A stretch of 64,000 nucleotides of DNA, taken from positions 13,428 to 77,427 of the forward strand of contig JAFYJD010000009.1 of the NCBI GenBank assembly GCA_017538255.1, written 5' to 3'. Source of the stretch: Clostridia bacterium. Its GTDB lineage: Bacteria > Bacillota > Clostridia > Christensenellales > CAG-138. The notes beneath the pieces are model-generated. The model was not told where the DNA came from, did not search any database, and worked only from the letters and a program-made list of their open reading frames with translations. Made by a program: the position numbers and the translations under genes. This document shows positions 1-64,000 of this stretch, in pieces (within the stretch, counting starts at the first letter, position 1; every line of letters begins with the position of its first letter).

Positions 1-361
1 AGGGCTCGACCTTCGCAGGGGTCTCGGCGTTCTTGGGCGCGGAGCCGCCGCGATTCTTCTCGGCGAGTTCCGCCAGTTCAAAAAACTTGCCCGTAACATG
101 CGCATAGCCCGCCTCGCTGTGGGGCAGGGTGCACTTTGAGCAATCCTTTATGCCTGTTTCGCTGTAGGTAAAGCCGCCGCCGCATTTATCGCCCAAAGCG
201 TACAGCGGACAGTAGCAGAAAAGGCAGTTGTGGAAGCCGTTTTCGGGCAGTTTGTGGCAGGGGAAGAACTCGCATTCCCTGTTCTGGAAATACGCGTAAT
301 GCGGCTGCCCCATATTCGGGAGTTTGGTGAGGTCGATTTTATGAAGTTTCTTTTCGGGCAT
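1..361 (-). CDS. Cysteine-rich small-domain protein, N-terminal part (gene runs off left edge)
   Basis: ATG at 361-359 with AAAGG upstream. Translation is MPEKKLHKIDL...ECEFFPCHKLPENGFHNCLFCYCPLYALGDKCGG, which fits the C..CH...NCxFCYCPLY pattern of the cysteine-rich small domain (PF04071-like). Absent from the ORF track because it is open at the edge. Confidence 0.6.
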   Translation of the reverse strand, partial: MPEKKLHKIDLTKLPNMGQPHYAYFQNRECEFFPCHKLPENGFHNCLFCYCPLYALGDKCGGGFTYSETGIKDCSKCTLPHSEAGYAHVTGKFFELAELAEKNRGGSAPKNAETPAKVEP

Positions 362-403
362 AGCAGGACCTTTCTTATCTAGTTAATAGTGAATAGTTAG
401 CGG

Positions 404-1330
404 TCATACCGCCAGCGCGTCCTCTCTATCCAGATACTCGCACGCGGCGATCGCGGCAACGCCGCCGTCCGCGCCGGCGGTAACGAGTTGGCGCACGGCC
501 TTGGTGCGGCAGTCGCCCGCAACGAACACGGCGGGGTTTTTGGTGCGGCAGCTTTCGTCCGCCGCGATAAAGCCGCTTTCATCGAGATCAACGAGCGATG
601 CGAACGCCGAATTGTTGGGCTCCTGACCGATCGCAACGAATACGCCGTCCGCTTCAAGCACGCGCGTTTCGCCCGTGAGTTTGTTTTCCACAATAAACTC
701 ACCGAGCGCGTTTTCTCCGCGCACGGCCTTCGGAACGCTGTTTAAAACAAGTTCGATGTTTTCGCAGGAGTTCAGCCCCGCGACAACGTGCTTCTCCGCG
801 CGGAACTCGTCGCGGCGATGAACAAGGTAGACCTTTTTTGCGAGTTTTGAAAGATATACGGCGTCCTGCACGGCGGTGTTGCCGCCGCCGACGACCGCAA
901 CGGTCTTGTCCTTAAAGAACGCGCCGTCGCAGACCGCGCAGAACGAGATGCCGCGGCCGATGAACTTTTCTTCGTTCTCGATGCCCATACGGCGGTGCTT
1001 GAGCCCGGTCGCGATGATTATCGAACGCGCGGTATGCTCGCCGTATTCGGTCTTTAAGGTAAAGGTCCTGTCGGGATTCTCGTGAACGGCGGTAACGGTG
1101 TCGACCTCGACCTCCGCGCCGAGATTCATAACCTGCTCAACAAGTATGTCGGACAGTTCCGTGCCGCTCATCGGCTTTGCAAAGGGATAGTTCTCCACGT
1201 GTGGCGAAAGCACTATCTGCCCGCCGAAGGTCTCCTTTTCTATCAAAAGCACGCTCCTGCCCGCGCGCCGCGCATAGATCGCGGCGGTGAGTCCAGCGGG
1301 ACCCGCGCCGACTATGATGATATCGTACAT
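404..1330 (-). CDS. trxB: Thioredoxin-disulfide reductase
   Basis: Starts MYDIIIVGAGPAGLTAAIYARRAG (FAD GxGxxG). Has the CAVCDG redox-active disulfide and a second GGGNTA NADPH motif. ATG at 1330 follows GGAGC; the longer track ORF start at 1390 lacks an RBS. Confidence 0.9.
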   Translation of the reverse strand: MYDIIIVGAGPAGLTAAIYARRAGRSVLLIEKETFGGQIVLSPHVENYPFAKPMSGTELSDILVEQVMNLGAEVEVDTVTAVHENPDRTFTLKTEYGEHTARSIIIATGLKHRRMGIENEEKFIGRGISFCAVCDGAFFKDKTVAVVGGGNTAVQDAVYLSKLAKKVYLVHRRDEFRAEKHVVAGLNSCENIELVLNSVPKAVRGENALGEFIVENKLTGETRVLEADGVFVAIGQEPNNSAFASLVDLDESGFIAADESCRTKNPAVFVAGDCRTKAVRQLVTAGADGGVAAIAACEYLDREDALAV

Positions 1331-1361
1331 AACTGCTCCTTTCGTGTTTAGGGTTTTATCC

Positions 1362-1406
1362 ATTATACACCGAACCGCAGTTCCCGTCAAAGGAAACTGC
1401 GGCTCG
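1362..1406 (-). promoter_or_regulatory. trxB promoter embedded in a long hairpin just after the nrdD stop
   Basis: Minus strand: TTGACG (1390-1385), 17 bp, TATAAT (1367-1362). The -35 lies in the loop of an inverted repeat ccgaaccgcagttcc/ggaaactgcggctcgg (about 1371-1406). No U-tract follows, so this is not a clean terminator. Confidence 0.45.
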
Positions 1407-1451
1407 GCTGGAAGGGTTTTTACATTTGGCTTACTGCCTATATCGAAAAGA

Positions 1452-3842
1452 TCATTCGTTAACGGCTTTTTCGCTCTGTTCGCGGATGAAGCGGTTTATG
1501 CCGCCCACGCCGGTGTAGGATTCAAAGATGCCGCCGCTTACAGCAACGAGGGTGGGCGCCTGATTGACGCCGAACTTCAGCGTGAGTTCGGTATTCTCCT
1601 CGGCGTCGACGGTATCGTAGGCAAGGCCCGCTTTGTCGAGCATCGCCTTTGCCGTCCTGCAGTTGGGGCAGGTCTTGGTGGTGAACAGAAGCAGTTTTTC
1701 GGGTTTGCCCGAGATATGGGCGTTTGCGGCCTCCGCTTTTTCGGCAAGGATGCGCTTGTGCTCTTCAAAGTCGAGCATCGTGTATTCCTTGCGCTCCTTG
1801 AACTCCTGCACCTTGCCGTCGTTCCAGTTCTGGATCGGGCGGTAGTAGCCGGTGATGCGGCTGTTGACCTCGGTTTTGGAGCCGCAATGCGGGCAGGTGT
1901 ACTGCTCGCCGGCGAGATAGCCGTGGTTGCGGCAGACAGAGTAGGTGGGGCTCATCGTGTAGTAGGGCAGATGATAGTTGTCGGCGATCTTGCGAACGAG
2001 GGTCGCCGCGCTCTCCCAACTGGGCAGTTTTTCGCCGAGGAAGGTGTGGAATACCGTGCCCGAGGTGTACAGGGTCTGCAATTCGTCCTGAATGTCAAGC
2101 GCCGCAAAGATATCCTCGCTGTAGCTTACGGGCAGGTGCGAACTGTTGGTATAGAAGGGGGTGCCGCCCTCCTCCGCCGCGGTGATGATCTCGGGGTAGT
2201 GCTTCGCGTCGTACTTGGCAAAGCGGTAGGCGGTGGACTCCGCGGGGGTCGCCTCGAGGTTGAACAGTTCGCCCTCGTATTTCTCCTGGTAGTCGGAGAG
2301 GCGGTCGCGCATATGGTTGAGCACGGTCTTGGTGAACTCCTGCGCCTTCTTGTCGGTAAGGTCGGCGCCGATCCACTTGGCGTTGAGACAGGCTTCGTTC
2401 ATACCCACGAGGCCGATCGTGGAGAAGTGGTTGTCAAACGAGCCGAGGTAGCGCTTAGTGTAGGGGTACAGACCCTCGTCAAGCAGGCGGGTGATGACGG
2501 TGCGCTTTACGTGCAGACTGCGCGCAGCAACGTCCATAAGGTGGTCAAGTTTTTTGTAGAACTCCGCTTCGTTCTCGGAAAGGAACGCAAGGCGGGGCAT
2601 ATTCAGCGTAACAACGCCGACGCTGCCGGTGCTTTCGCCGCTTCCGAAGAAGCCGCCGCTCTTTTTGCGCAGCTCGCGAAGGTCGAGCCTGAGGCGGCAG
2701 CACATCGAACGGATGTCGCTCGGCTTCATATCGCTGTTTACGTAGTTGGAGAAGTACGGCGTGCCGTATTTTGCGGTCATCTCAAACAGGAGCCTGTTGT
2801 TCTCGGTGGGAGACCAGTCAAAATCCTTGGTGATGGAGTAGGTGGGGATGGGGTACTGGAAGCCGCGGCCCTGCGCGTCGCCCTCGATCATCGTTTCGAT
2901 GAACGCCTTGTTGACCATATCCATCTCTTTTTTGCAGTCGCCGTAAGTGAAATCCATCTGCTTGCCGCCCACGATAGCGGGGCAGTCGCGCAGATCGTCG
3001 GGCACCGTCCAGTCAAGGGTGATGTTGGAGAACGGCGCCTGCGTGCCCCAGCGCGAGGGGGTGTTCACGCCGTAGACAAAACTCTCGATGCACTTTTTAA
3101 CGGCGTCGTAGTCCAGATTGTCGGTGCGTACAAAGGGCGCGAGGTAGGTGTCGAACGAGCTGAACGCCTGTGCGCCCGCCCATTCGTTCTGCATAATGCC
3201 GAGGAAGTTGACCATCTGGTTGCAGAGGGTGGAAAGATGCTTCGCGGGCGAGGATGAGATCTTGCCCGAAACGCCCGAAAGCCCCTCTTCGATGAGCTGG
3301 CGGAGCGACCAGCCGGCGCAGTAGCCGGTGAGCATCGAAAGGTCGTGGATATGGATGTCGCAGTTGCGGTGCGCGTTTGCGATCTCGTCGTCGTAGGCTT
3401 CGCTCAGCCAGTAGTTCGCGGTGATGGCGCCGCTGTTTGAAAGGATAAGGCCGCCGACGGAGTACGTTACGGTGGAGTTCTCCTTTACGCGCCAGTCGGT
3501 GACGTTGATGTACTTGTTGACGGTCTCGCGGTAGTCGAGCTCGGTCTTTTTGAGGTTGCGCAGTTTTTCTCTCTGGCGGCGGTATAGGATGTACGCCTTG
3601 GCAACATCCGCATAGCCGGACTGGCTCAAAACGGACTCGACGCTGTCCTGGATGTCCTCAACGGCGATCTGATCGTCCTTTACCTTGGCGGCAAAATCGG
3701 CGCTGACCTTGAGTGCGAGCAGGTCGAGTATGTCGGGATGACAGGGGGTGCCCTGCGCTTCGAACGCACGGCTCATTGCGTCTTTGATCTTGCCAAGGTC
3801 AAAATCAACAACGGAATCGTCTCTTTTAATAACGCGATACAT
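1452..3842 (-). CDS. nrdD: Anaerobic (class III) ribonucleoside-triphosphate reductase with C-terminal thioredoxin/glutaredoxin-like domain
   Basis: ATP-cone N-terminus MYRVIKRDDSVVDFDLGKIKDAM, C-terminal Zn site CPHCGS, glycyl-radical motif SRITGYYRP. An extra ~85 aa follows with a CPNC motif (LLLFTTKTCPNCRTAKAML...APTLV). ATG at 3842 is preceded by GAAGGAGAA. Confidence 0.92.
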   Translation of the reverse strand: MYRVIKRDDSVVDFDLGKIKDAMSRAFEAQGTPCHPDILDLLALKVSADFAAKVKDDQIAVEDIQDSVESVLSQSGYADVAKAYILYRRQREKLRNLKKTELDYRETVNKYINVTDWRVKENSTVTYSVGGLILSNSGAITANYWLSEAYDDEIANAHRNCDIHIHDLSMLTGYCAGWSLRQLIEEGLSGVSGKISSSPAKHLSTLCNQMVNFLGIMQNEWAGAQAFSSFDTYLAPFVRTDNLDYDAVKKCIESFVYGVNTPSRWGTQAPFSNITLDWTVPDDLRDCPAIVGGKQMDFTYGDCKKEMDMVNKAFIETMIEGDAQGRGFQYPIPTYSITKDFDWSPTENNRLLFEMTAKYGTPYFSNYVNSDMKPSDIRSMCCRLRLDLRELRKKSGGFFGSGESTGSVGVVTLNMPRLAFLSENEAEFYKKLDHLMDVAARSLHVKRTVITRLLDEGLYPYTKRYLGSFDNHFSTIGLVGMNEACLNAKWIGADLTDKKAQEFTKTVLNHMRDRLSDYQEKYEGELFNLEATPAESTAYRFAKYDAKHYPEIITAAEEGGTPFYTNSSHLPVSYSEDIFAALDIQDELQTLYTSGTVFHTFLGEKLPSWESAATLVRKIADNYHLPYYTMSPTYSVCRNHGYLAGEQYTCPHCGSKTEVNSRITGYYRPIQNWNDGKVQEFKERKEYTMLDFEEHKRILAEKAEAANAHISGKPEKLLLFTTKTCPNCRTAKAMLDKAGLAYDTVDAEENTELTLKFGVNQAPTLVAVSGGIFESYTGVGGINRFIREQSEKAVNE

Positions 3843-3911
3843 CTGGTATTCTCCTTCAAAAAAAGTATTTTTCGGACGCGGCACGGCACGCCCTAATTTA
3901 GTGTCGATACG

Positions 3912-3940
3912 ATTTTACCACAACATATTGTGGATTGCAA
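3912..3940 (-). promoter_or_regulatory. nrdD promoter with NrdR-box-like palindrome in the spacer
   Basis: Minus strand: TTGCAA (3940-3935), 17 bp, TAAAAT (3917-3912). The spacer is CCACAATATGTTGTGG (3933-3918), a near-perfect 16-bp palindrome resembling the NrdR box consensus acaCwAtATaTwgtgt. Confidence 0.55.
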
Positions 3941-5339: not shown

Positions 5340-8300
5340 ATGAAACCACAAACTATAAAATTCAAACTTATAGCCGGTCTTCTCGCGTTGGCGATGATGC
5401 TGTCGCTAATCAGCGTGCCGACAATTGCCGAAAGAAGGGAGCCGATAAGGCCGCAGAGCCGGTCGGTGCAGTTCGTCGTAACCGCTCCGAGCAGGGTCGA
5501 ATGCGGTGAGCAGTTTAATGTTGTAGTAAGCATCAGCGGCTCATATCAGGCACACGGCTTAACGCTTAACTTCCCGTTTGACGAGGACGCGTTTGAGTTT
5601 GTCAGCGTTAGCAAGGGCGCAGTCCTTCGTAACGACGTGCAGGAGCACGGCGGACAGGCGCTGCTCTCCTATAGTTATAACTCTGCCGAGGGAAAGGAGA
5701 TACTGTCTCTTGGCGTTGCGATGACCGACGCCGCTCAGCCGATGACGATGGAGGGTGAACTGTTCACTCTTACGCTTATGGCAAAGACCGAAGCGGCAGA
5801 CGGCGCATATACTATGGCGCCCGATATCACCAAACTGGTCTATATGCCGTCTGTTACCGCAATTAACATCCCTTACACCGTGCTTCCGGCAACAGTTAGT
5901 ATCGGAATGATCAACGAGGCGGTGTTTAACGTTAGCACGCTAAACAATGTTGAACGTGGCGAGCAGTTCGATGTTGTAGTAAGCATCAGCGGCTCATATC
6001 AGATGCACGGCCTTGCGCTCAATTTCCCATTTGATGAGAACAATTTTGAGTATGTCGGCGTCAAAAAGGGCGCTGTACTCACAGACGATGCGCAGGCTCA
6101 AGGCGGAATGGTCAACCTCAGTTACGAATACAATGCGACGGCTAAAAAGAATCTGCTCGTTCTTGGCGTTGTTATGCCCAATCCCAATCGGCCGATGACG
6201 ATGACGGGCGAACTGTTCACGCTTACCCTTAAGGCAAAGACCGATGCGGCGAGCAACGCGTACACTATGGCGCCCGTTGTTACCGAGATGACCTATATAC
6301 CCGATTCGGAAGTACTGGATGTTGAACATAATGTGATCCCCGCAACAGTAACGGTAGGCTCCTTCCCCGAGATCGCTTACGAAGGCGCAAACGGCACGCG
6401 CATAGTGCTCGGCAAGGATGCATATCTCACAGAGGACGGCACCTATACCGTCGATCTTTCTGCATACGCCGTCGGTACCGAGATAGTCGCTCAAAATACG
6501 GCGACAGATATGGATCGCTTTTCCTCGATCACCGATAGGATCGGCGAAAACTTCGATCTGCCCGACGACTTTGCGGATAATCTTGACAACTATGTTGAGA
6601 TGTATCTCGCAATGGTCGACAGCGCTGCGATGAAGGCCGAGGGCAGCACGGATCTTACCGACGTCAAAAACTGGATCTTCAAAAATCCGGTCAAATATAA
6701 CGACGCGATAACCAAGATCGCAGCAGACGCCGATAATGCTGCGATTGAATCGCTGCTTTATCCTCAGACCGGCAGCTCTTTCCATCCCGGGATCAATTTC
6801 GACGCTTCCACAGGCAACGTTACAATACTCGGCTTCCGCTGGGATGAGATCGGTTGGAATTGCGGTATGTCCGGCACCGACTTCAACGGCAGACGGCTGA
6901 TCGTTCGCATCAAGGGACTGACAGCGAAGGAGAACACCGTTCCGGCGAACGATATACCCATCGACTTAAACGGATTCTCCGGTATGAAGCAAAACTGGCG
7001 GGACGCAATTCCCGCATCCTTAGAAACCGCTAATGGCAGCGAACTGCTGCTGTTTCCGGAGTCCACGGTCAAGATTCGTGAGAAGGGCATCGTTTATGAC
7101 TACGGCCTCAGGCTTGTTGGCAGCGATCTGACCGGATTCTTCGCCGAGGAGGGCTGCGCAAACGATGTACAGCGTCTTCTCAGCATCGACTATATGTACG
7201 AAGCCCAGCGCAAGCAAAATGCCGTTAACTATCACGGCACCTATCCTTACAGCGGCGCAAAGGGCAGGAATATCGACGGCGATCCCATCGTGTACGGCGA
7301 TGATATCTCCTACGAGGATGACGTATTCAAGATCGGCTTTATGATAAACGGCAATGAGATCGGGGAGCATACCCCGCAGCCTGCATACGGCGAAAATGCC
7401 GTCGTATGCTACTTCGAGCCCCATTCCGTCAGCCGCGGCGATCTCGCCGCTGCCGCGCTTCTGGAACTCACAGGCACCCAAACTGATGTATTCGGCAACG
7501 ATATCAAGAGGTACGAGTGGTGCAAACTGAACGTCATTCCCGCAAGCAACGTTCTCTACGAGGCGGAGCAGGGCGTTGACGATTCAAACCCCATCGTCCT
7601 CGGCAATAAGCGGGAAAAACTCGAAGGCAGTTTCGGCATCTTTTACTCCGGCAGGGAAAGATCGAACGGCAGTTGGGCGGCGACCGCGGCGTGGAGCGTT
7701 GACGGCGACGCGCTGACCGATTCCACTCAGGAGCACTATAACAGGCTCTACGGCTATGATCCCGTCTATAACGGTCAACTCGCGCAGTATGCAAGCGGCG
7801 CGGCGATGAAGGTCAATGTGGGCGAAACACTCTATCGCCTTGTCAATCAAGGAAACGCACAATGGCCCGTTGCCAAGTTTACATTCGAGGGCACAGGCTT
7901 TTCGTTCAACACCGTCTGTTCGCTTTATTCCGGCATTTTCGCGGTAGACGTCGTGCCCCACGGTCAGCCCGCAAGCACGGAAACGGGCGACGCCGGCACA
8001 TCCCTGCATACCTTTGTAAACACCCGCTACTACGGCGCGGCAGAGGAGAACTTCAACGAAACGGGTATTCTCACGATCGACGCGGATACGCTCTATCAAG
8101 TGCCCGTAATGCGTCACGCGAATATGGAATACGGCGTATACGACGTATACATCACCCCCGTTTACTACCCCGCGTGGGCGGAGATCCACGGCGGTTCCAA
8201 GGGCGCGGACACGCTCAAGGACGGGCAGATCATAACAGGTTTCCCGGGACTTGAAGCGAAAAACTATACCGTCGTGAATGCTGTCAATAACGGCGGCGCA

Positions 8301-9230
8301 GCGGTTGCCGCAAAGGGCGAAGAAGCCGCAGAGTTCATTTGCCGCATCGACACATTCCGCGTGTATCATCCGCTCGGATCGATGCCATGCCAAAACAACG
8401 CAGCCGCTCTGGAATACTGCGCGGCGCACGAGATGAACGCCGAGTACGTTAAAGTAAGGGACGTCATCCTCGGCGGCATCGAGAATATCGGTAATGCCGC
8501 TGTGAACGGCTTTGGCGGCGCGATCTTCATCGATTACGGCCGCACAGACGATCAGACAGGCAATCTCCAAGAATCGCACTTCGCTCCCGATGATCCCGAT
8601 TCCTTCACCGCTATGGAGTACGCTCTGCTTGGACCGAACAACGAGATGTACCTGCCCGCCGATGCTAATTTCACGTTCAATGTTGCCGATCCGTACTTGA
8701 TCGCCAACCTGCATTTGAGCGCAAAGGCACTGACGGGCGACGCTGCGCAGATGGAGATCACCTATCTGTACAGCGACGCGAGCGGCAGGCAGGAGGTCGT
8801 GTTCACAAGGGACGTGCTCTCCGCGACCGAGATGTACTATGATATCGGCCGTGTAAACGCGGAAGGCGCGCTGCTCGTTGATGACGACCTCGTGGGCATC
8901 AGCGTCAGGTGCACCGCGGGCACGCTATCGCTGATCAACATAAAGACCGTCTATGACCGCTGCGAGGAAGAAGAACCCGTTATCGAACGCGGTATCGTCG
9001 GCGATATCAACACGCTTGAAGCGGCGAATGTCGTCGCGTTCGGCGTCAGGGGCGATGTGAACTTCGACGGCGGGATCGACATTGTTGACGCGATCACGGT
9101 AATGCGCGCCGCGCTCGGAATCGAATGCCTCGGCACCTCGGCACGCTACTGCGCTAACATCGACAGAAGCGATGCGGTCGACTCCGCGGATGCCGTCTGC
9201 ATCATCCGCTATGCGCTCGGCATCGATTGA
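5340..9230 (+). CDS. Secreted cellulosome-like protein: signal peptide, two cohesin-like modules, ~870-aa unassigned region, C-terminal dockerin
   Basis: Signal peptide MKPQTIKFKLIAGLLALAMMLSLISVPTIA. Two ~151-aa repeats (GEQFNVVVSISGSYQAHGLTLNFPFDEDAFEFVSVSKGAVL / GEQFDVVVSISGSYQMHGLALNFPFDENNFEYVGVKKGAVL) have a cohesin-type pattern. The C-terminus GDVNFDGGIDIVDAITVMRAALGI...NIDRSDAVDSADAVCIIRYALGI is a duplicated dockerin Ca-binding segment. Confidence 0.8.
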   Translation: MKPQTIKFKLIAGLLALAMMLSLISVPTIAERREPIRPQSRSVQFVVTAPSRVECGEQFNVVVSISGSYQAHGLTLNFPFDEDAFEFVSVSKGAVLRNDVQEHGGQALLSYSYNSAEGKEILSLGVAMTDAAQPMTMEGELFTLTLMAKTEAADGAYTMAPDITKLVYMPSVTAINIPYTVLPATVSIGMINEAVFNVSTLNNVERGEQFDVVVSISGSYQMHGLALNFPFDENNFEYVGVKKGAVLTDDAQAQGGMVNLSYEYNATAKKNLLVLGVVMPNPNRPMTMTGELFTLTLKAKTDAASNAYTMAPVVTEMTYIPDSEVLDVEHNVIPATVTVGSFPEIAYEGANGTRIVLGKDAYLTEDGTYTVDLSAYAVGTEIVAQNTATDMDRFSSITDRIGENFDLPDDFADNLDNYVEMYLAMVDSAAMKAEGSTDLTDVKNWIFKNPVKYNDAITKIAADADNAAIESLLYPQTGSSFHPGINFDASTGNVTILGFRWDEIGWNCGMSGTDFNGRRLIVRIKGLTAKENTVPANDIPIDLNGFSGMKQNWRDAIPASLETANGSELLLFPESTVKIREKGIVYDYGLRLVGSDLTGFFAEEGCANDVQRLLSIDYMYEAQRKQNAVNYHGTYPYSGAKGRNIDGDPIVYGDDISYEDDVFKIGFMINGNEIGEHTPQPAYGENAVVCYFEPHSVSRGDLAAAALLELTGTQTDVFGNDIKRYEWCKLNVIPASNVLYEAEQGVDDSNPIVLGNKREKLEGSFGIFYSGRERSNGSWAATAAWSVDGDALTDSTQEHYNRLYGYDPVYNGQLAQYASGAAMKVNVGETLYRLVNQGNAQWPVAKFTFEGTGFSFNTVCSLYSGIFAVDVVPHGQPASTETGDAGTSLHTFVNTRYYGAAEENFNETGILTIDADTLYQVPVMRHANMEYGVYDVYITPVYYPAWAEIHGGSKGADTLKDGQIITGFPGLEAKNYTVVNAVNNGGAAVAAKGEEAAEFICRIDTFRVYHPLGSMPCQNNAAALEYCAAHEMNAEYVKVRDVILGGIENIGNAAVNGFGGAIFIDYGRTDDQTGNLQESHFAPDDPDSFTAMEYALLGPNNEMYLPADANFTFNVADPYLIANLHLSAKALTGDAAQMEITYLYSDASGRQEVVFTRDVLSATEMYYDIGRVNAEGALLVDDDLVGISVRCTAGTLSLINIKTVYDRCEEEEPVIERGIVGDINTLEAANVVAFGVRGDVNFDGGIDIVDAITVMRAALGIECLGTSARYCANIDRSDAVDSADAVCIIRYALGID
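5455..6360 (+). repeat. Tandem duplication (period 453 bp) encoding the two cohesin-like modules
   Basis: The identical 32-mer atgttgtagtaagcatcagcggctcatatcag occurs at 5518 and 5971. Flanking sequence is similar but diverged. Confidence 0.85.
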
Positions 9231-17325: not shown

Positions 17326-17694
17326 ATGACACCGAAAATTTTTGAAAGCGAATACCGTTTCTGCCTGATCCTGTGGGAAACCGAGCCGATAAGGAGCACC
17401 GAACTTGTCAGGATCTGCGGCGAACAACTTGCTTGGAAGCCGACAACGACCTATACCGTCATCAAGCGTCTGAAAGAGCGCGGCGTGCTTGAAAACAGTT
17501 CCGGCGTCATAACTTCGCTCGTTTCCAAGGAAGAGGCGCAGCAGGCGGAGATAGACGAACTTGTCGATAAGCGCTTCGGCGGCTCGCTGCCGTCGTTCAT
17601 CGCGGCGTTCACGCGCCGAAGAAATATGACGGACGATGAGATCGCGTCCATTCAGCGTATGATCGACGCTTCAAGAAAGGGGGATGTTGTTTGA
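17326..17694 (+). CDS. BlaI/MecI/CopY-family transcriptional repressor
   Basis: Winged-helix N-terminus (CLILWETEPIRSTELVRICGEQLAWKPTTTYTVIKRLKERGVL) plus a C-terminal dimerisation helix. It overlaps the downstream M56 gene (TTGA). Confidence 0.85.
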   Translation: MTPKIFESEYRFCLILWETEPIRSTELVRICGEQLAWKPTTTYTVIKRLKERGVLENSSGVITSLVSKEEAQQAEIDELVDKRFGGSLPSFIAAFTRRRNMTDDEIASIQRMIDASRKGDVV

Positions 17695-20057
17695 ACACCG
17701 TATTTTTAAAACTGCTCAATATGAGCATCGCGGCAAGTTGGCTGATCCTTGCGGCATTCATTATAAGGCCGATACTCAAAAAAGCGCCGAAGCGCGTTGC
17801 GGTCCTTATCTGGGCGCTCGTTGCGATAAGGCTCGTTTTGCCGTTCAGCATCAAGAGCCCTTTAAGCCTTGTGCCGAGCGAAAAGACCGTCGCCCGTGCG
17901 GAAGAAAAGGGGAGTGCCATCATACTCAACTCGGGCTTCTCCTTTATAAACTCTGTGTTCGAAGCGCCGCCGTCAAACGCCGATATCATCCCCGCGGACA
18001 ATTCTGCGGTCAACCCGATGATGCCCGAAACGAGCCCCAAGACCTCGCCAAGCCTTCTTGCGGGCATTGTGGATAATGCGGGTTATATCTGGGCGGCGGG
18101 CGCAGCCGCTATGAGCCTTTACTGCGCCGTAAGTTTTATCCTGCTTTCGCGGCGCGTTCGCGGAGCGGAACACTATGAGGCCAATGTTTACATAAGTTCC
18201 GCCGCCGATACCGCGTTTGTGCTCGGCGTTGTAAAGCCGCGCATCTACTTGCCCAAAGCCGCGCCTTCGAGTTGGGAATACGCCGTCGCGCACGAGCGGG
18301 CGCATATAAAGCGCGGCGACCATATCTTCAAGATACTTGGCTTTGCGGTCTTGGCGCTGCATTGGTTCAATCCGCTCGTATGGCTCGGCTATGCGCTTCT
18401 CTGCCGCGATATCGAATCCGCCTGCGATGAAAAGGTCATCGCTTCGCTCGATACGGATTCGCGCGCCGATTATTCGCAGGCGCTGCTCGACTGCGCCGCA
18501 AAAAGGAGGAGCATAGCCGCCTGCCCGCTCGCGTTCGGCGGAACGGGCACGAAAAAACGCATCAAGGATGTGCTCAATTACAAAAAGCCCGCGTTCTTAA
18601 TCCTGCTTGCCGCGCTCGTGTTGATCGCCGCGCTTGCGGTATTCTTCTTAACGGGTCCGATGCGCAAAAAGGATACAAAAGGGGAGGATGCTATGACACA
18701 AAACATACCTAAACTGCCCGAGCGCACGCTCGATGAACTGCGCACCGGCTATACAAAAGAACAGGCTGCGATTGACGGCTGCGTGGTTATGGAAGGATCG
18801 GCTCTGCGCGCGGGCGAAAAGGTCTGGCTCGATTTCTATGAGGCTTCGCAGGCGGGTGTATCCACCGCAGTCAGGGTGTATAAGTATTATGAAGAGTCGG
18901 ATGATTATTTTGTGAGCGATATTTCGTTCGACGGCGAAAAGTACAATAGAAAGACGTGGGACAGAGATGGCGATACGGATCAATGGATTTTTAAGGATGA
19001 GAGTTTTAACTACCTTGTAAGAAGCGCATACTCGGTAAACGGAAGATCATTCGAGGACTATCTGCTTTCCGACAGCGCCGAGGTGACGGCGGAGAGATAT
19101 TGGGCAAGGATGCTCTCCTCGTTAAGTTTTCACGATGATGACGATATCTATGCTCATTGCAGAATAGCGCTTTCGATATTCCGCCAAGAGGATGAGACTG
19201 TGCTCCCGCTTGAGCAGATAAAAGAGGGCTATTCCAAAGAACAGGCGGTCAAGGACGGCTGCGTGGTTATGGACGGATCGGAGCTGCTCGCGGGCGAAAA
19301 GATCTGGCTCGATTTCTATAAGGCTTCGCAAATGGGCGAACCCGCCGCCGTTAGGGTTTATCAGTATTATGAAGAACCGGAAGATTATTTCGTAAGCGAT
19401 ATCTCGTTCAACGGCGAAAAGTACAATAGAAAGATGTGGGACAGAGAAGGCGATACGCGCCAATGGATTTTTAAGGATGATAGTTTTGACTACCTTGTAA
19501 GAAGCATCGACTCGGTGAACGGAAAGGAATTCGTGTACTACCTGCTTTCCGACAGCGCGGAGGTGACGGCGGAGAGATATTTGTCAAGGATAGTATCCTC
19601 GGTGTGCCCTCTTTTCGATGACGATATCTATGCTAATTGCACTATAGCGCTTTCGATCCGGCGCGACAACGGCATCAGAATGATCCCGGATGCCATTTAT
19701 GATGAAGCCTATATCGATCTGGACGGCGACGGCACGGCGGAAAAATGCACTCTCGGTTTTGGACCGACGTCGGGACTTTTCACATTCACGTTTACGGTGT
19801 ATAAAGATGGAGTTCAAGTATCAAGACGCATCTATTGCACGGATTTTTTGAGCGCGATAGGGTTTTTTAAGGACACGACCGGCGCGTATCGCGTCGTCGG
19901 GCTGACGCAGGTCGGATCGATATTCCAAAATATGCGCCCAGATACGCTGGATCTTTACAAGTCCTGGCGCATAGTCAAGGACGAACACGGCTACGGACTA
20001 ACTACGCTGAACGGCGAGAAGAGCGATGATTTTTACGCATGGGGAAATCTGGGTTGA
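17691..20057 (+). CDS. BlaR1/MecR1-like M56 peptidase (signal transducer) with non-PBP extracellular region
   Basis: N-terminal TM helices and the HEXXH motif AHERAHIKRGDH. After the last TM come two ~160-aa repeats and a C-terminal DLDGDGTAE-containing module. No penicillin-binding (SxxK) sensor is visible. Confidence 0.85.
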   Translation: MNTVFLKLLNMSIAASWLILAAFIIRPILKKAPKRVAVLIWALVAIRLVLPFSIKSPLSLVPSEKTVARAEEKGSAIILNSGFSFINSVFEAPPSNADIIPADNSAVNPMMPETSPKTSPSLLAGIVDNAGYIWAAGAAAMSLYCAVSFILLSRRVRGAEHYEANVYISSAADTAFVLGVVKPRIYLPKAAPSSWEYAVAHERAHIKRGDHIFKILGFAVLALHWFNPLVWLGYALLCRDIESACDEKVIASLDTDSRADYSQALLDCAAKRRSIAACPLAFGGTGTKKRIKDVLNYKKPAFLILLAALVLIAALAVFFLTGPMRKKDTKGEDAMTQNIPKLPERTLDELRTGYTKEQAAIDGCVVMEGSALRAGEKVWLDFYEASQAGVSTAVRVYKYYEESDDYFVSDISFDGEKYNRKTWDRDGDTDQWIFKDESFNYLVRSAYSVNGRSFEDYLLSDSAEVTAERYWARMLSSLSFHDDDDIYAHCRIALSIFRQEDETVLPLEQIKEGYSKEQAVKDGCVVMDGSELLAGEKIWLDFYKASQMGEPAAVRVYQYYEEPEDYFVSDISFNGEKYNRKMWDREGDTRQWIFKDDSFDYLVRSIDSVNGKEFVYYLLSDSAEVTAERYLSRIVSSVCPLFDDDIYANCTIALSIRRDNGIRMIPDAIYDEAYIDLDGDGTAEKCTLGFGPTSGLFTFTFTVYKDGVQVSRRIYCTDFLSAIGFFKDTTGAYRVVGLTQVGSIFQNMRPDTLDLYKSWRIVKDEHGYGLTTLNGEKSDDFYAWGNLG
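18747..19660 (+). repeat. Tandem duplication, period 480 bp, inside the M56 sensor region
   Basis: gacggctgcgtggttatgga occurs at 18774 and 19254. acgatatctatgct is at 19141 and 19621. acggcgaaaagtacaatagaaaga is present in both copies. Identity is high at nucleotide level by eye. Confidence 0.9.
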
Positions 20058-32728: not shown

Positions 32729-33106
32729 TTAGTGCAAAATGTTTCTTACGGTTTCGGAAAGTCTGAGGATATCTGTCTTATCGCAGATGTTGGTCTTGTA
32801 CATAAGGGATACGAAATCGGACAAGGACGCGCCTTTTTCACCGTTGATGAGAGCGCCTCTTGAACGCACAATGTACTCGGCGGGGGTGAGGGTGGGCTCG
32901 TACAGATAACTGCGAACCTGTTTGCCGCAGATCTTGATATAGCCCTTGGCGTGGAGGCGGTTCACGAAGGTCTGAACGGTTTGATATGTCCAGTCGTGAT
33001 CGCGGATCTCGTGCCAAACTTCGGTGATGATAACGGGTTTTTTCGCGGCCCAGATAACCTGCATTATCTTGAGTTCAGCCGCAGAAACATCTTTGATTGG
33101 TTGCAT
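32729..33106 (-). CDS. BlaI/MecI/CopY-family transcriptional repressor (orphan, no M56 partner)
   Basis: VSAAELKIMQVIWAAKKPVIITEVWHEIRDHDWTYQTVQTFVNRLHAKGYI is the typical Penicillinase_R winged helix. AGGAG lies 8 nt upstream. Confidence 0.8.
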   Translation of the reverse strand: MQPIKDVSAAELKIMQVIWAAKKPVIITEVWHEIRDHDWTYQTVQTFVNRLHAKGYIKICGKQVRSYLYEPTLTPAEYIVRSRGALINGEKGASLSDFVSLMYKTNICDKTDILRLSETVRNILH

Positions 33107-62126: not shown

Positions 62127-64000
62127 ATGAACATTATCCTTGCAAAGCACGCGGGCTTCTGCTTCGGCGTGCGCCGTGCCGTCGAGATTACGAAACAAAC
62201 GGCAAAAAAAGTCGGCGGCGAAAGCGGCGTCGGATTTGCGCCGCGCGTTTTCACATACGGCGAGCTGATACACAACAGGACGGTCGTTGACGAACTCGCT
62301 GCTTGCGGCATAACGGCGATAGATTCGCCGAGCGAGGCGCGGGAGGGGGACTATGTGGTGATACGCTCGCACGGCGTGCCGAAGTCGGTGTTTGACGAAC
62401 TAACGGAGCGCGGGCTCAACGTGATCGACGCAACCTGCCCGTTCGTCGCAAGGATACACGAAACGGTCTCCGCGGCAAAGGCGCGTGGCGAAAGGGTGTT
62501 CATCGTCGGCGAGATGACTCATCCCGAGGTCGTCGGCATCAACGGGCATTGCGGCGACTCCGCCGTGTTCATCCGGGGCGAGGACGAGCTTTCAAAACTC
62601 GCGGGCGGCGGCGGCTGCCTCGTTGTGCAGACTACGTTCGACTATGATACCTTCTCAAAAATGCGCGAAACGATCGAGCGCGACTACCCCGAAATCACGG
62701 TCAACAACACCATTTGCACCACCACGAGGGAGCGCCAAAAGGAAGCCGATGAACTCAGCCATAAATGCGACGTTATGCTTGTTTTGGGGGACAAAAACAG
62801 TTCAAACACCCAAAAATTGAAAGAAATATGCAAAAAAAACTGCAATATGACCCAAAATGCCGCCAAAGTAAGCGATATTTCTCTTGATTTATTAAAAAAT
62901 TGTGATATAATGATAGGCGTTGTTGCCGGTGCATCAACACCGGATTCGATTATCAGGGAGGTTATTAACACAATGAACGAACAGGTAGCAAACACCGAAG
63001 CCACCACCGAAACCGTGCCCGCGACTGCGGCACAGACCATCGACGAGAATGCTGTTTTTGATGAAGACGCGATCAACAAAACCATCGTTCGTATCCATGG
63101 CGGACAGATACTGACCGGTACTGTCATCCAGATCGTTGACGGCGAAATCAGCGTCAGCATCGGCTATAAGTCCGATGGCTACATCCCCCGCTCCGAGTTT
63201 TCCGACGATCCCGAAGTGGACCCCGCTTCCGTATTCAAGGTGGGCGATCCCATCGAGGTCGAAGTTCTCAAGGTAAACGACGGCGAAGGCAACGTTCTCC
63301 TTTCTCGCAAGAATGTCGAGCGTCAGAAGGTATGGGACGAGTTCTCCAACGATCCCAACGTCGAAGATAAGGTCTTCGAGGGCGTATGCACCGAGGTCAT
63401 CAAGGGCGGCGTTATTGTTGAACTCAACAACGGCGCGGCAAAGGCTTTCGTGCCCGCTTCGCAGGTTTCCACCAGGTTCGTTCAGGACCTCAAGCAGTTC
63501 GTCGGCCAGCCGATGAAACTCAAGATCCTCGAAGTGGACGAAAAACGCAGGCGCGTTGTCGCCTCCTGCAAGGCCATCCTTCAGCAGGAAGCGGATGAGG
63601 CCGAGAAGAAGATATGGGATAACCTCGAAGTCGGTATGAAGACAAAGGGTATCGTTCGCCGTATGACCGATTTCGGCGCGTTCGTCGACATCGGCGGTGT
63701 GGACGGTCTTGTACATATCACCCAGTGTGCCTGGGGCAGGGTTAAGAACCCCGCCGAGGTGTTTGCTGCAGGTCAGGAGATCGACGTAGTTATTCGCGAA
63801 CTCGACAGGGAGAACAAAAAGATCTCCCTCGGTTATCGTGAACTTCTGCCCAAGCCCTGGAGCACCGCGGATGAAAGGTATCCCGTAGGCTCGTTCGTAG
63901 AAGGCAAGGTAGTCCGCATCGTTACGTTCGGCGCATTTGTTTCGCTCGAGCCCACGATCGACGGTCTTATCCATATTTCGCAGGTCGGTCTGAAGCGCGT
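62127..64000 (+). CDS. ispH: Bifunctional 4-hydroxy-3-methylbut-2-enyl diphosphate reductase (IspH) / ribosomal protein S1 fusion, 3' end beyond window
   Basis: I translated the frame by hand from the ATG at 62127 (after GGGGAG) and it stays open to the window edge. The N-terminal part is MNIILAKHAGFCFGVRRAV...DATCPFV...NTICTTT...VVAGASTP (three IspH Cys). From about 63060 there are S1 repeats (GTVIQIVDGEISVSIGYKSDGYIP...; KGIVRRMTDFGAFVDIGGVDGLVHI). Absent from the ORF track because no stop lies within the window. Confidence 0.9.
   Translation, partial: MNIILAKHAGFCFGVRRAVEITKQTAKKVGGESGVGFAPRVFTYGELIHNRTVVDELAACGITAIDSPSEAREGDYVVIRSHGVPKSVFDELTERGLNVIDATCPFVARIHETVSAAKARGERVFIVGEMTHPEVVGINGHCGDSAVFIRGEDELSKLAGGGGCLVVQTTFDYDTFSKMRETIERDYPEITVNNTICTTTRERQKEADELSHKCDVMLVLGDKNSSNTQKLKEICKKNCNMTQNAAKVSDISLDLLKNCDIMIGVVAGASTPDSIIREVINTMNEQVANTEATTETVPATAAQTIDENAVFDEDAINKTIVRIHGGQILTGTVIQIVDGEISVSIGYKSDGYIPRSEFSDDPEVDPASVFKVGDPIEVEVLKVNDGEGNVLLSRKNVERQKVWDEFSNDPNVEDKVFEGVCTEVIKGGVIVELNNGAAKAFVPASQVSTRFVQDLKQFVGQPMKLKILEVDEKRRRVVASCKAILQQEADEAEKKIWDNLEVGMKTKGIVRRMTDFGAFVDIGGVDGLVHITQCAWGRVKNPAEVFAAGQEIDVVIRELDRENKKISLGYRELLPKPWSTADERYPVGSFVEGKVVRIVTFGAFVSLEPTIDGLIHISQVGLKR
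62884..62975 (+). promoter_or_regulatory. Promoter-like and SD-like signals inside the ispH-rpsA fusion, upstream of an in-frame ATG at the domain junction
   Basis: TTGATT (62884-62889), 16 bp, TATAAT (62906-62911) with TGa extended -10, all in a locally AT-rich patch. AGGGAGG (62955-62961) lies 11 nt before the in-frame ATG at 62973 (MNEQVANTE...). Confidence 0.35.

Follow-up and report, generated by a model that had tools for sequence, protein, structure and literature searches.

Locus organization and domain layout

The DNA analyzed here is a stretch of 64,000 nucleotides (nt), the window, from contig JAFYJD010000009.1 of a Clostridia bacterium (assembly GCA_017538255.1). Positions 1-3940 hold three consecutive genes on the minus strand: a class III ribonucleotide reductase (RNR) gene whose product continues into a redoxin domain (nrdD::redoxin), trxB, which encodes a thioredoxin reductase, and a gene for a cysteine-rich protein of family PF04071.

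The nrdD::redoxin coding sequence (1452..3842, minus) is a single uninterrupted open reading frame (ORF) of 796 amino acids plus stop. A longer form of the ORF, the longest available, begins with GTG (1452..3884, minus strand, 810 amino acids); the ATG at 3842 has GGAG 8 nt upstream and the homologs share a MYRV start, which gives the 796-residue protein. An ORF of 656 amino acids on the plus strand at 1287-3257, antisense inside nrdD, is taken to be a shadow ORF.

The encoded protein begins with an ATP-cone, the allosteric activity site (residues 3-92; 3567..3836, minus; PF03477, 77.8 bits), followed by the NRDD core (residues 121-687; PF13597, 623 bits) and a Glutaredoxin match (residues 718-753; PF00462, 29.5 bits in one scan and 34.3 bits in another, cut-off 22.9). 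The model for ribonucleoside triphosphate reductase, NF006126, scores 1107.5 bits (cut-off 548) and spans residues 2-688, which leaves the C-terminal ~108 residues beyond the standard family; TIGR02487 is also above its cut-off (508.3 vs. 326.35 bits). The glycyl-radical motif SRITGYYRP (residues 661-669; 1836..1862, minus) places Gly665 opposite Gly681 in the RVCGY of E. coli NrdD. The C-terminal zinc site consists of C637, H640, C650 and C653 (1884..1934, minus) within the motif CRNHGYLAGEQYTCPHC (residues 637-653); it is invariant in the homolog alignment and aligns with the E. coli CxxC...CxxC. A full-length AlphaFold2 model, with a predicted local distance difference test score (pLDDT) of 81, matches the NrdD structures of S. 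thermophilus, P. copri, T. maritima and T4 (E values from 1e-22 to 1e-34), and its predicted barrel is the ten-stranded α/β fold of class III RNRs. With family hidden Markov models matched and Gly665, Cys382 and Cys175 all in place, the predicted product is the catalytic subunit of a class III RNR.

A first-pass annotation, made from the sequence without database searches, had described a 796-residue NrdD with an ATP-cone and glycyl-radical motif that runs past the glycyl site through a linker into a redoxin-like module. The translation confirms this, with each quoted motif at the place given, a linker of ~28 residues (688-715) and a domain of 81 residues (716-796). The zinc site that it listed is present as well, with its composition corrected to Cys3His.

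The fusion is widespread

Scanning one genome per species gave 594 stretches with relatives of the locus, from which the best 80 were kept (L-numbers). The protein sample comprises the 120 best clusters from public data (82-88% identical), and more distant relatives (P-numbers) were taken from a library of 50%-identity representatives. An uninterrupted fused ORF is found in 80/80 loci, with CPNC as the redoxin motif in 75 and CPKC in 5. PF03477, PF13597 and PF00462 occur together in 120/120 of the best protein clusters, one of which holds 1559 sequences. The database search that had been proposed for the spread of the fusion thus finds it in every one of these best loci and clusters: it is present in at least 80 species and is not a rarity of one genome.

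The carriers are mostly metagenome-assembled genomes (MAGs) labelled Clostridia, from the Oscillospiraceae, Acutalibacteraceae, Ruminococcaceae, Lachnospiraceae and Christensenellaceae; the few cultured carriers include Ruminococcus turbiniformis, Pseudoflavonifractor phocaeensis and Clostridiales bacterium CCNA10. Distant fused versions among the 50%-identity representatives have AMCCRLNL as finger loop and a redoxin with CPKC or CPRC, while non-fused relatives terminate ~20 residues past the glycyl motif.

Four MAGs labelled Lentisphaeria (L031, L048, L049, L061) carry a fused nrdD ~73% identical to the Clostridia versions, which suggests horizontal transfer or mis-binning. L071 (labelled Phascolarctobacterium) and L077 (Bacteroidaceae) resemble these cases. 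Many members of the family are split by inteins (Intein_splicing, HNH, LAGLIDADG; P0132, P0133, P0152, P0187, P0219, P0230, P0245), and in two of them, P0219 and P0245, it interrupts the finger-loop cysteine motif itself. P0219 was at one point considered a fusion of the NrdD3 type (QCCR); the alignment reveals the finger-loop intein, after whose removal the motif would be SMCCRLRL.

The C-terminal domain is a predicted thioredoxin fold under selection for redox function

The linker (residues 688-715; 1698..1781, minus) is predicted to form a single helix, after which confidence in the model is low (DSSP, pLDDT). Relatives have 49 to 101 residues between their glycyl motif and the CPxC, a range in keeping with a flexible tether. 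The domain behind it (residues 716-796; 1455..1697, minus) has the predicted order β-α-β-α-β-β-α, with CPNC at residues 725-728 (1659-1670, minus) and a cis-proline, Pro763, within APTLV. A CxxC together with a cis-proline is the hallmark of an active thiol-disulfide oxidoreductase.

An alignment of 49 divergent copies, 20-72% identical to the copy in the window, was used to model the domain by itself. This AlphaFold model has a pLDDT of 92.8 and the fold order of a thioredoxin fold of glutaredoxin/NrdH size. Its Foldseek matches are thioredoxins with template modelling (TM) scores of 0.6-0.7, one hit being part of the pre-reduction complex of B. subtilis RNR, and the best sequence match of the domain in PDB is desulfothioredoxin. 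The prediction, the Foldseek matches and the invariant CPxC and cis-proline bear out the earlier assignment of the module to the thioredoxin fold.

Cys725, Pro726, Cys728 and Pro763 are the sole invariant columns in the 49 copies. Across the 80 loci, the NrdD core is 71-80% identical and the redoxin domain 36-63%. Fixation of the CPxC and cis-proline in a domain that evolves this fast points to selection on redox function rather than to a passive tail. The domain falls far short of the NrdH, Grx3 and YruB equivalog models of NCBIfam (TIGR02194, 21.3 bits against a cut-off of 85.75; TIGR02181, 28.8 against 90; TIGR02196, 30.8 against 88.55), which indicates a distinct type of redoxin.

The active site carries thiol-type residues and retains a methionine

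The βA ‘bottom-face’ cysteine is assigned as Cys175 (3318..3320, minus), a correction to the earlier reading; it aligns with Cys175 of E. coli NrdD and Cys125 of T. maritima NrdD. The finger loop SMCCRLRL (residues 379-386; 2685..2708, minus) contains Met380, the third cysteine Cys381 and the thiyl cysteine Cys382, which align with M382, G383 and C384 of the E. coli enzyme, respectively. The motif is identical in 80/80 loci, and Met380 is thus kept in all of them. Glu530 in NLEATPAE (2253..2255, minus), the candidate active-site base, is invariant in the homolog alignment and in 80/80 loci; in HMMER alignments its column holds Glu (residue 495) in T. maritima and Leu in P. copri, and E. coli has Tyr.

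The closest solved core is that of T. maritima NrdD (132 bits), followed by P. copri and S. thermophilus (~85) and T4 (43). The sole long low-confidence stretch of the full-length model, residues 382-402, lies directly after CCR, and the loop after SCCR is disordered in the crystal structures of T. maritima NrdD (PMC4493059). In the window protein, MCCR is followed by GGFFGSG, in which F399 is nearly invariant. RNRdb group NrdDh4 is described as an MCCR variant of SCCR with Phe in a downstream pseudo-finger-loop motif (Aurelius et al., PMC4493059), and the MCCR and Phe motif of the predicted protein fit this group.

NrdD2 is defined, in PMC4493059, by a third active-site cysteine beside the thiyl cysteine and by an active-site Glu. 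Judged from the alignments, the active site matches this thiol-type signature (Cys175, Cys381/Cys382, Glu530). A stricter definition of a ‘thioredoxin-only’ NrdD2, SCCR with no Met (PMC9669993), excludes the enzyme, as MCCR is present in the window and in 80/80 loci. The first-pass proposal of a thiol-dependent NrdD therefore holds for the third cysteine (C381) and Glu530, and is qualified by the MCCR, which keeps the Met of the formate route. The comparison of active-site residues that it had set out as a check ended in the same way: the formate-type residues of E. coli and P. copri are replaced at Glu530, Met380 stays, and the outcome is not clear-cut.

The gene neighborhood: trxB, nrdG and other genes

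The gene following nrdD::redoxin on the same strand is trxB (404-1330, minus), which encodes a low-molecular-weight thioredoxin reductase of 308 amino acids (TIGR01292, 353.2 bits, cut-off 343.45) with the motifs GRG, CAVC, GGGNTAVQ and VYLVHRRDEFRA. NADPH-type TrxB proteins are recognized by CxxC, G[R/K]G and FF (thioredoxin-binding), GGGxxAxE and VxxxHRRDxxRA (PMC5627308). The window protein has GRG125, CAVC131-134, FF and VYLVHRRDEFRA167, and deviates at GGGNTAVQ, where Gln replaces the final Glu of GGGxxAxE. Apart from this Gln, it is predicted by its motifs to be of the NADPH type. As the first-pass annotation had stated, trxB lies next on the same strand, with a promoter-like site of its own. 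Relatives share the arrangement: in 57 of the 80 loci trxB comes immediately after the fused nrdD in the same orientation (gaps often 11-30 nt), and in 3 more it lies within about 1.2 kb.

The usual operon among relatives is nrdG-nrdD::redoxin-trxB. A nrdG of the TIGR02495 type is directly upstream in 64/80 loci and elsewhere within 10 kb in 8/80, and the complete cassette nrdG2 (TIGR02495)-nrdD::redoxin-trxB, with all genes adjacent, is found in 49/80. The few without nrdG nearby include the window and L001, the closest genome relative (80% identical): in the 64 kb of the window there is no ORF of at least 80 amino acids with a credible CxxxCxxC of a radical-SAM activase, and a tblastn search of the window with the NrdG sequences of five relatives gave a best E value of 0.37. 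The absence of an adjacent nrdG, to which the first-pass annotation had drawn attention, is therefore real for this stretch, but it is not a feature of the system; with nrdG adjacent in most relatives, it is a lineage-specific rearrangement, and the missing gene is set aside as a special feature.

The third gene, of which only the 5' part is present (1..361, minus; PF04071, 96.4 bits) because it leaves the window, starts 42 nt past the end of trxB, and the two are probably transcribed together. The cysteine-rich neighbor reported earlier is thus confirmed as a PF04071 gene, but its position is incidental: it stands beside trxB in only 1/80 loci (L001), and it is taken as probably outside the cassette.

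The reductases of related operons are not uniform. trxB matches of at least 250 amino acids are present in 59 related loci, ~24 with HRRxxFR and ~35 with QNLxxxT or similar (e.g., L003:12443-13321). Following the motif logic of PMC5627308, QNLxxxT in place of HRRxxxR, the motif for the 2'-phosphate of NADPH, indicates a TrxB of a non-NADPH type. The TrxB of many related operons is therefore probably no NADPH-binding enzyme and may take electrons from ferredoxin, NADH or some other donor.

Contigs of non-fused or distantly fused relatives were examined for a separate redoxin or trxB; on those of P0211, P0254, P0236, P0252, P0257, P0261 and P0209, only nrdG was seen, a result of no weight on contigs of just 3-11 kb. 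In two loci a second class III pair lies beside the fused operon (L006:12583-15309, L016:4133-6849), with an NrdD 23-24% identical to that of the window and a short NrdG, which in L006 is of the TIGR02491 type. One organism can thus hold two class III RNRs, maybe with different reductants.

Promoters and regulation

A promoter-like site, TTGCAA-17-TAAAAT (3912..3940, minus), precedes nrdD::redoxin and contains in its spacer the NrdR-box-like palindrome CCACAATATGTTGTGG (3918-3933, minus), which at 13/16 matches is the best in the 64-kb window. Boxes scoring at least 13 are found upstream of the operon in 46/75 relatives vs. 11/375 random segments. Those of the relatives are often paired, ~32 nt apart, and a single box is evident in the window. 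A search of the window with an approximate E. coli NrdR sequence gave no match.

The 121-nt gap between nrdD and trxB holds a promoter-like site, TTGACG-17-TATAAT (1362..1390, minus; 11/12 matches), and no terminator-like hairpin on the minus strand. An inverted repeat of 10-11 bp (CCGCAGTTTCC / GGAACTGCGG, 1375-1402, minus) flanks the TTGACG -35 element of trxB; it may serve as an operator or, at the nrdD end, form an RNA hairpin. No known RNA or riboswitch in the window was matched by Rfam.

Comparison with characterized systems

PMC4390871 and PMC4493059 report that the NrdD of Neisseria bacilliformis (NrdD2; NrdDh3 in RNRdb; Wei et al. 2014) uses thioredoxin and thioredoxin reductase. The window enzyme shares with it the adjacent finger-loop cysteine pair, the active-site Glu and a dithiol recharged, in our reading, by a flavin thioredoxin reductase. 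The Neisseria enzyme, however, has SCCR with no Met and a free thioredoxin and has been assayed, whereas the window system has MCCR, an attached redoxin and an operon trxB. T. maritima NrdD (NrdDh1; PDB 4coi, 4u3e), which requires a protein reductant of >10 kDa (PMC4493059), has in common with the window enzyme the aligned Glu and a CCR after which the loop is disordered or modelled at low confidence; it differs in having no ATP-cone, no fused redoxin and SCCR instead of MCCR.

The NrdD3 of Methanosarcina barkeri employs a NrdH-like redoxin and a ferredoxin:disulfide reductase, according to a passage in PMC9176816 that cites Wei et al. 2015. A small glutaredoxin/NrdH-like redoxin as direct reductant and a dedicated upstream reductase are thus features that the two systems would share. 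Unlike the window enzyme, NrdD3 has no Glu (PMC4493059) and works with a separate redoxin and an Fe-S reductase, whereas the TrxB of the window is a canonical NADPH flavoenzyme by sequence. E. coli NrdD (NrdD1, formate) shares the ATP-cone, the βA cysteine, the Met two residues before the thiyl cysteine, the glycyl-radical domain and the zinc site, but has Gly at the position of Cys381 and Tyr at that of Glu530, no redoxin domain and an adjacent nrdG.

That an RNR can carry its reductant in cis is demonstrated by the glutaredoxin-ATP-cone-NrdB fusion of Facklamia ignava, in which the fused glutaredoxin domain is an efficient RNR reductant (PMC6187632). That fusion differs in being class I, N-terminal, on the radical-generating subunit and glutathione-dependent. 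A RefSeq search for glutaredoxin-RNR fusions listed one ‘Glutaredoxin:NrdD’, from Lachnospiraceae bacterium TWA4, assigned to NrdDd (Rozman Grinberg et al. 2018, PMC6187632 Table S1); it is the sole glutaredoxin-NrdD fusion that we found recorded in a paper. By the notation of that table its glutaredoxin is apparently N-terminal, whereas the window family has a C-terminal CPNC domain and an NrdDh4-like MCCR. The TWA4 fusion thus differs from the window fusion by subclass and apparently by domain order.

Full-text literature searches found no description or characterization of a C-terminal redoxin on NrdD, in agreement with the first-pass annotation, which was aware of no characterized fusion of this kind. 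The architecture is present in precomputed Pfam annotations and is thus catalogued yet unstudied.

Proposed mechanism and alternatives

We consider it probable that the locus encodes a thiol-dependent class III RNR of the NrdD2 type that carries its own protein reductant in cis. From the domains, residues, conservation and gene neighborhood, which are directly observed, we infer each electron-transfer step as follows. The NrdG activase, encoded elsewhere in the genome, would install the radical on Gly665, from which a thiyl radical would be generated on Cys382. Reduction of a nucleoside triphosphate (NTP) would spend the Cys175/Cys381 pair, with Glu530 acting as base, and would leave a disulfide. 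The tethered Cys725/Cys728 domain may then re-reduce this disulfide, either within one subunit or in the partner subunit of the dimer, and TrxB, a flavin adenine dinucleotide (FAD) enzyme with a CAVC motif encoded directly downstream, would recharge the oxidized redoxin domain with NADPH. The overall chain would run from NADPH through TrxB, the tethered CPNC and the Cys175/Cys381 disulfide to the NTP, with the ATP-cone and NrdR box presumably supplying the usual allosteric and transcriptional control. The thiol route is favored because of the NrdD2 residues, the selection on the redox residues and the conserved trxB.

Several points weigh against this interpretation. The family is known from sequence and predicted structure, and it is an assumption that the redoxin domain reaches the active site. 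The Glu530 column is provisionally taken, by alignment with T. maritima residue 495, to be that of the NrdD2 glutamate. In 16/80 loci there is room downstream and no trxB nearby, and these loci have no consistent substitute reductase, their downstream genes being mutually unrelated. The retention of Met380 means that the thiol signature is present, yet an E. coli-type formate/thiosulfuranyl route is chemically possible. MCCR enzymes are classed as able to use either reductant (Burnim et al. 2022, PMC9669993); the same survey notes that most double-cysteine class III enzymes combine the formate-type Met with the thiol-type Cys/Glu, and leaves their reductant open.

A dual-mode enzyme, which would use formate if available and otherwise the tethered redoxin, TrxB and NADPH, would explain why Met380, Cys381 and Glu530 are all invariant together. 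We regard this as unlikely: no class III RNR with both reductants has been demonstrated in the literature examined, Met380 could be structural, and no formate-producing gene was noticed in the ORF listing of the 64-kb window, which is a weak guide to the whole genome.

Also unlikely is an enzyme in which formate does the turnover through a Met380-Cys175 thiosulfuranyl route, while the redoxin and TrxB keep cysteines reduced for activation by NrdG or for repair once the enzyme has met oxidants, with no part in the individual catalytic cycle. The targets of the redoxin would then be the cysteines of the zinc site or glycyl domain, or the CC pair. Such a role would suit a redoxin attached right behind the Zn-ribbon and glycyl-radical domain, and an invariant Met380 aligned with Met382 of E. 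coli. However, the third cysteine and the Glu are invariant in the fused NrdD, and the formate-type enzymes of E. coli and P. copri are without both; a fused domain with a dedicated reductase gene would also be a heavy cost for occasional repair.

A final alternative is that an assembly error or frameshift created the fusion, or that the tail is what is left of a once independent redoxin gene now in decay. This is a prior possibility for any single sequence and nothing more, and we give it practically no credence here, as it is refuted by the conservation of the uninterrupted fusion (80/80 species loci, 120/120 clusters) and of the redox residues, with a confidently predicted fold.

Other features of the window

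A secreted protein of 1296 amino acids with two cohesin domains (PF00963) and a C-terminal dockerin-like repeat is encoded at 5340-9230 (plus) and hints at a cellulosome-type surface system. At 17326-20057 (plus), a BlaI-type repressor gene (PF03965) is followed by one for a BlaR1/M56 sensor peptidase of 778 amino acids (PF05569); an apparent second BlaI-like ORF, judged by its N-terminal sequence only, is at 32729-33106 (minus). An ORF at 62127-64000 (plus) fuses an IspH (LytB) domain to four S1 RNA-binding domains and leaves the end of the window.

Implications for class III RNRs and gut bacteria

Many strict anaerobes make their DNA precursors by class III RNR alone, and its reductant decides whether DNA synthesis depends on formate metabolism or on the NADPH/ferredoxin pool. 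The fusion described here appears to be an uncharacterized and widespread variant of the thioredoxin-type class III RNR, a core interpretation that is supported comparatively and not proven. The natural joining of an MCCR enzyme to a redoxin, near a TrxB gene and maintained in at least 80 species, supports the thiol route as ‘Rosetta-stone’ evidence, and it offers a test system of one polypeptide with TrxB and NADPH, to be compared with formate.

More tentatively, the MCCR+Glu enzymes, which make up most double-cysteine class III RNRs, may be protein-dithiol enzymes in general, of which the fused family would be a self-contained form, with the QNLxxxT operons maybe fed by ferredoxin or another non-pyridine donor. 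If this is true, the fused family would parallel, in bacteria and with a flavoenzyme, the archaeal chain from ferredoxin through NrdH to NrdD3. Many of the carriers are gut MAGs (Oscillospiraceae, Ruminococcaceae, Lachnospiraceae, Christensenellaceae), and the finding therefore bears on how gut commensals synthesize their deoxyribonucleoside triphosphates.

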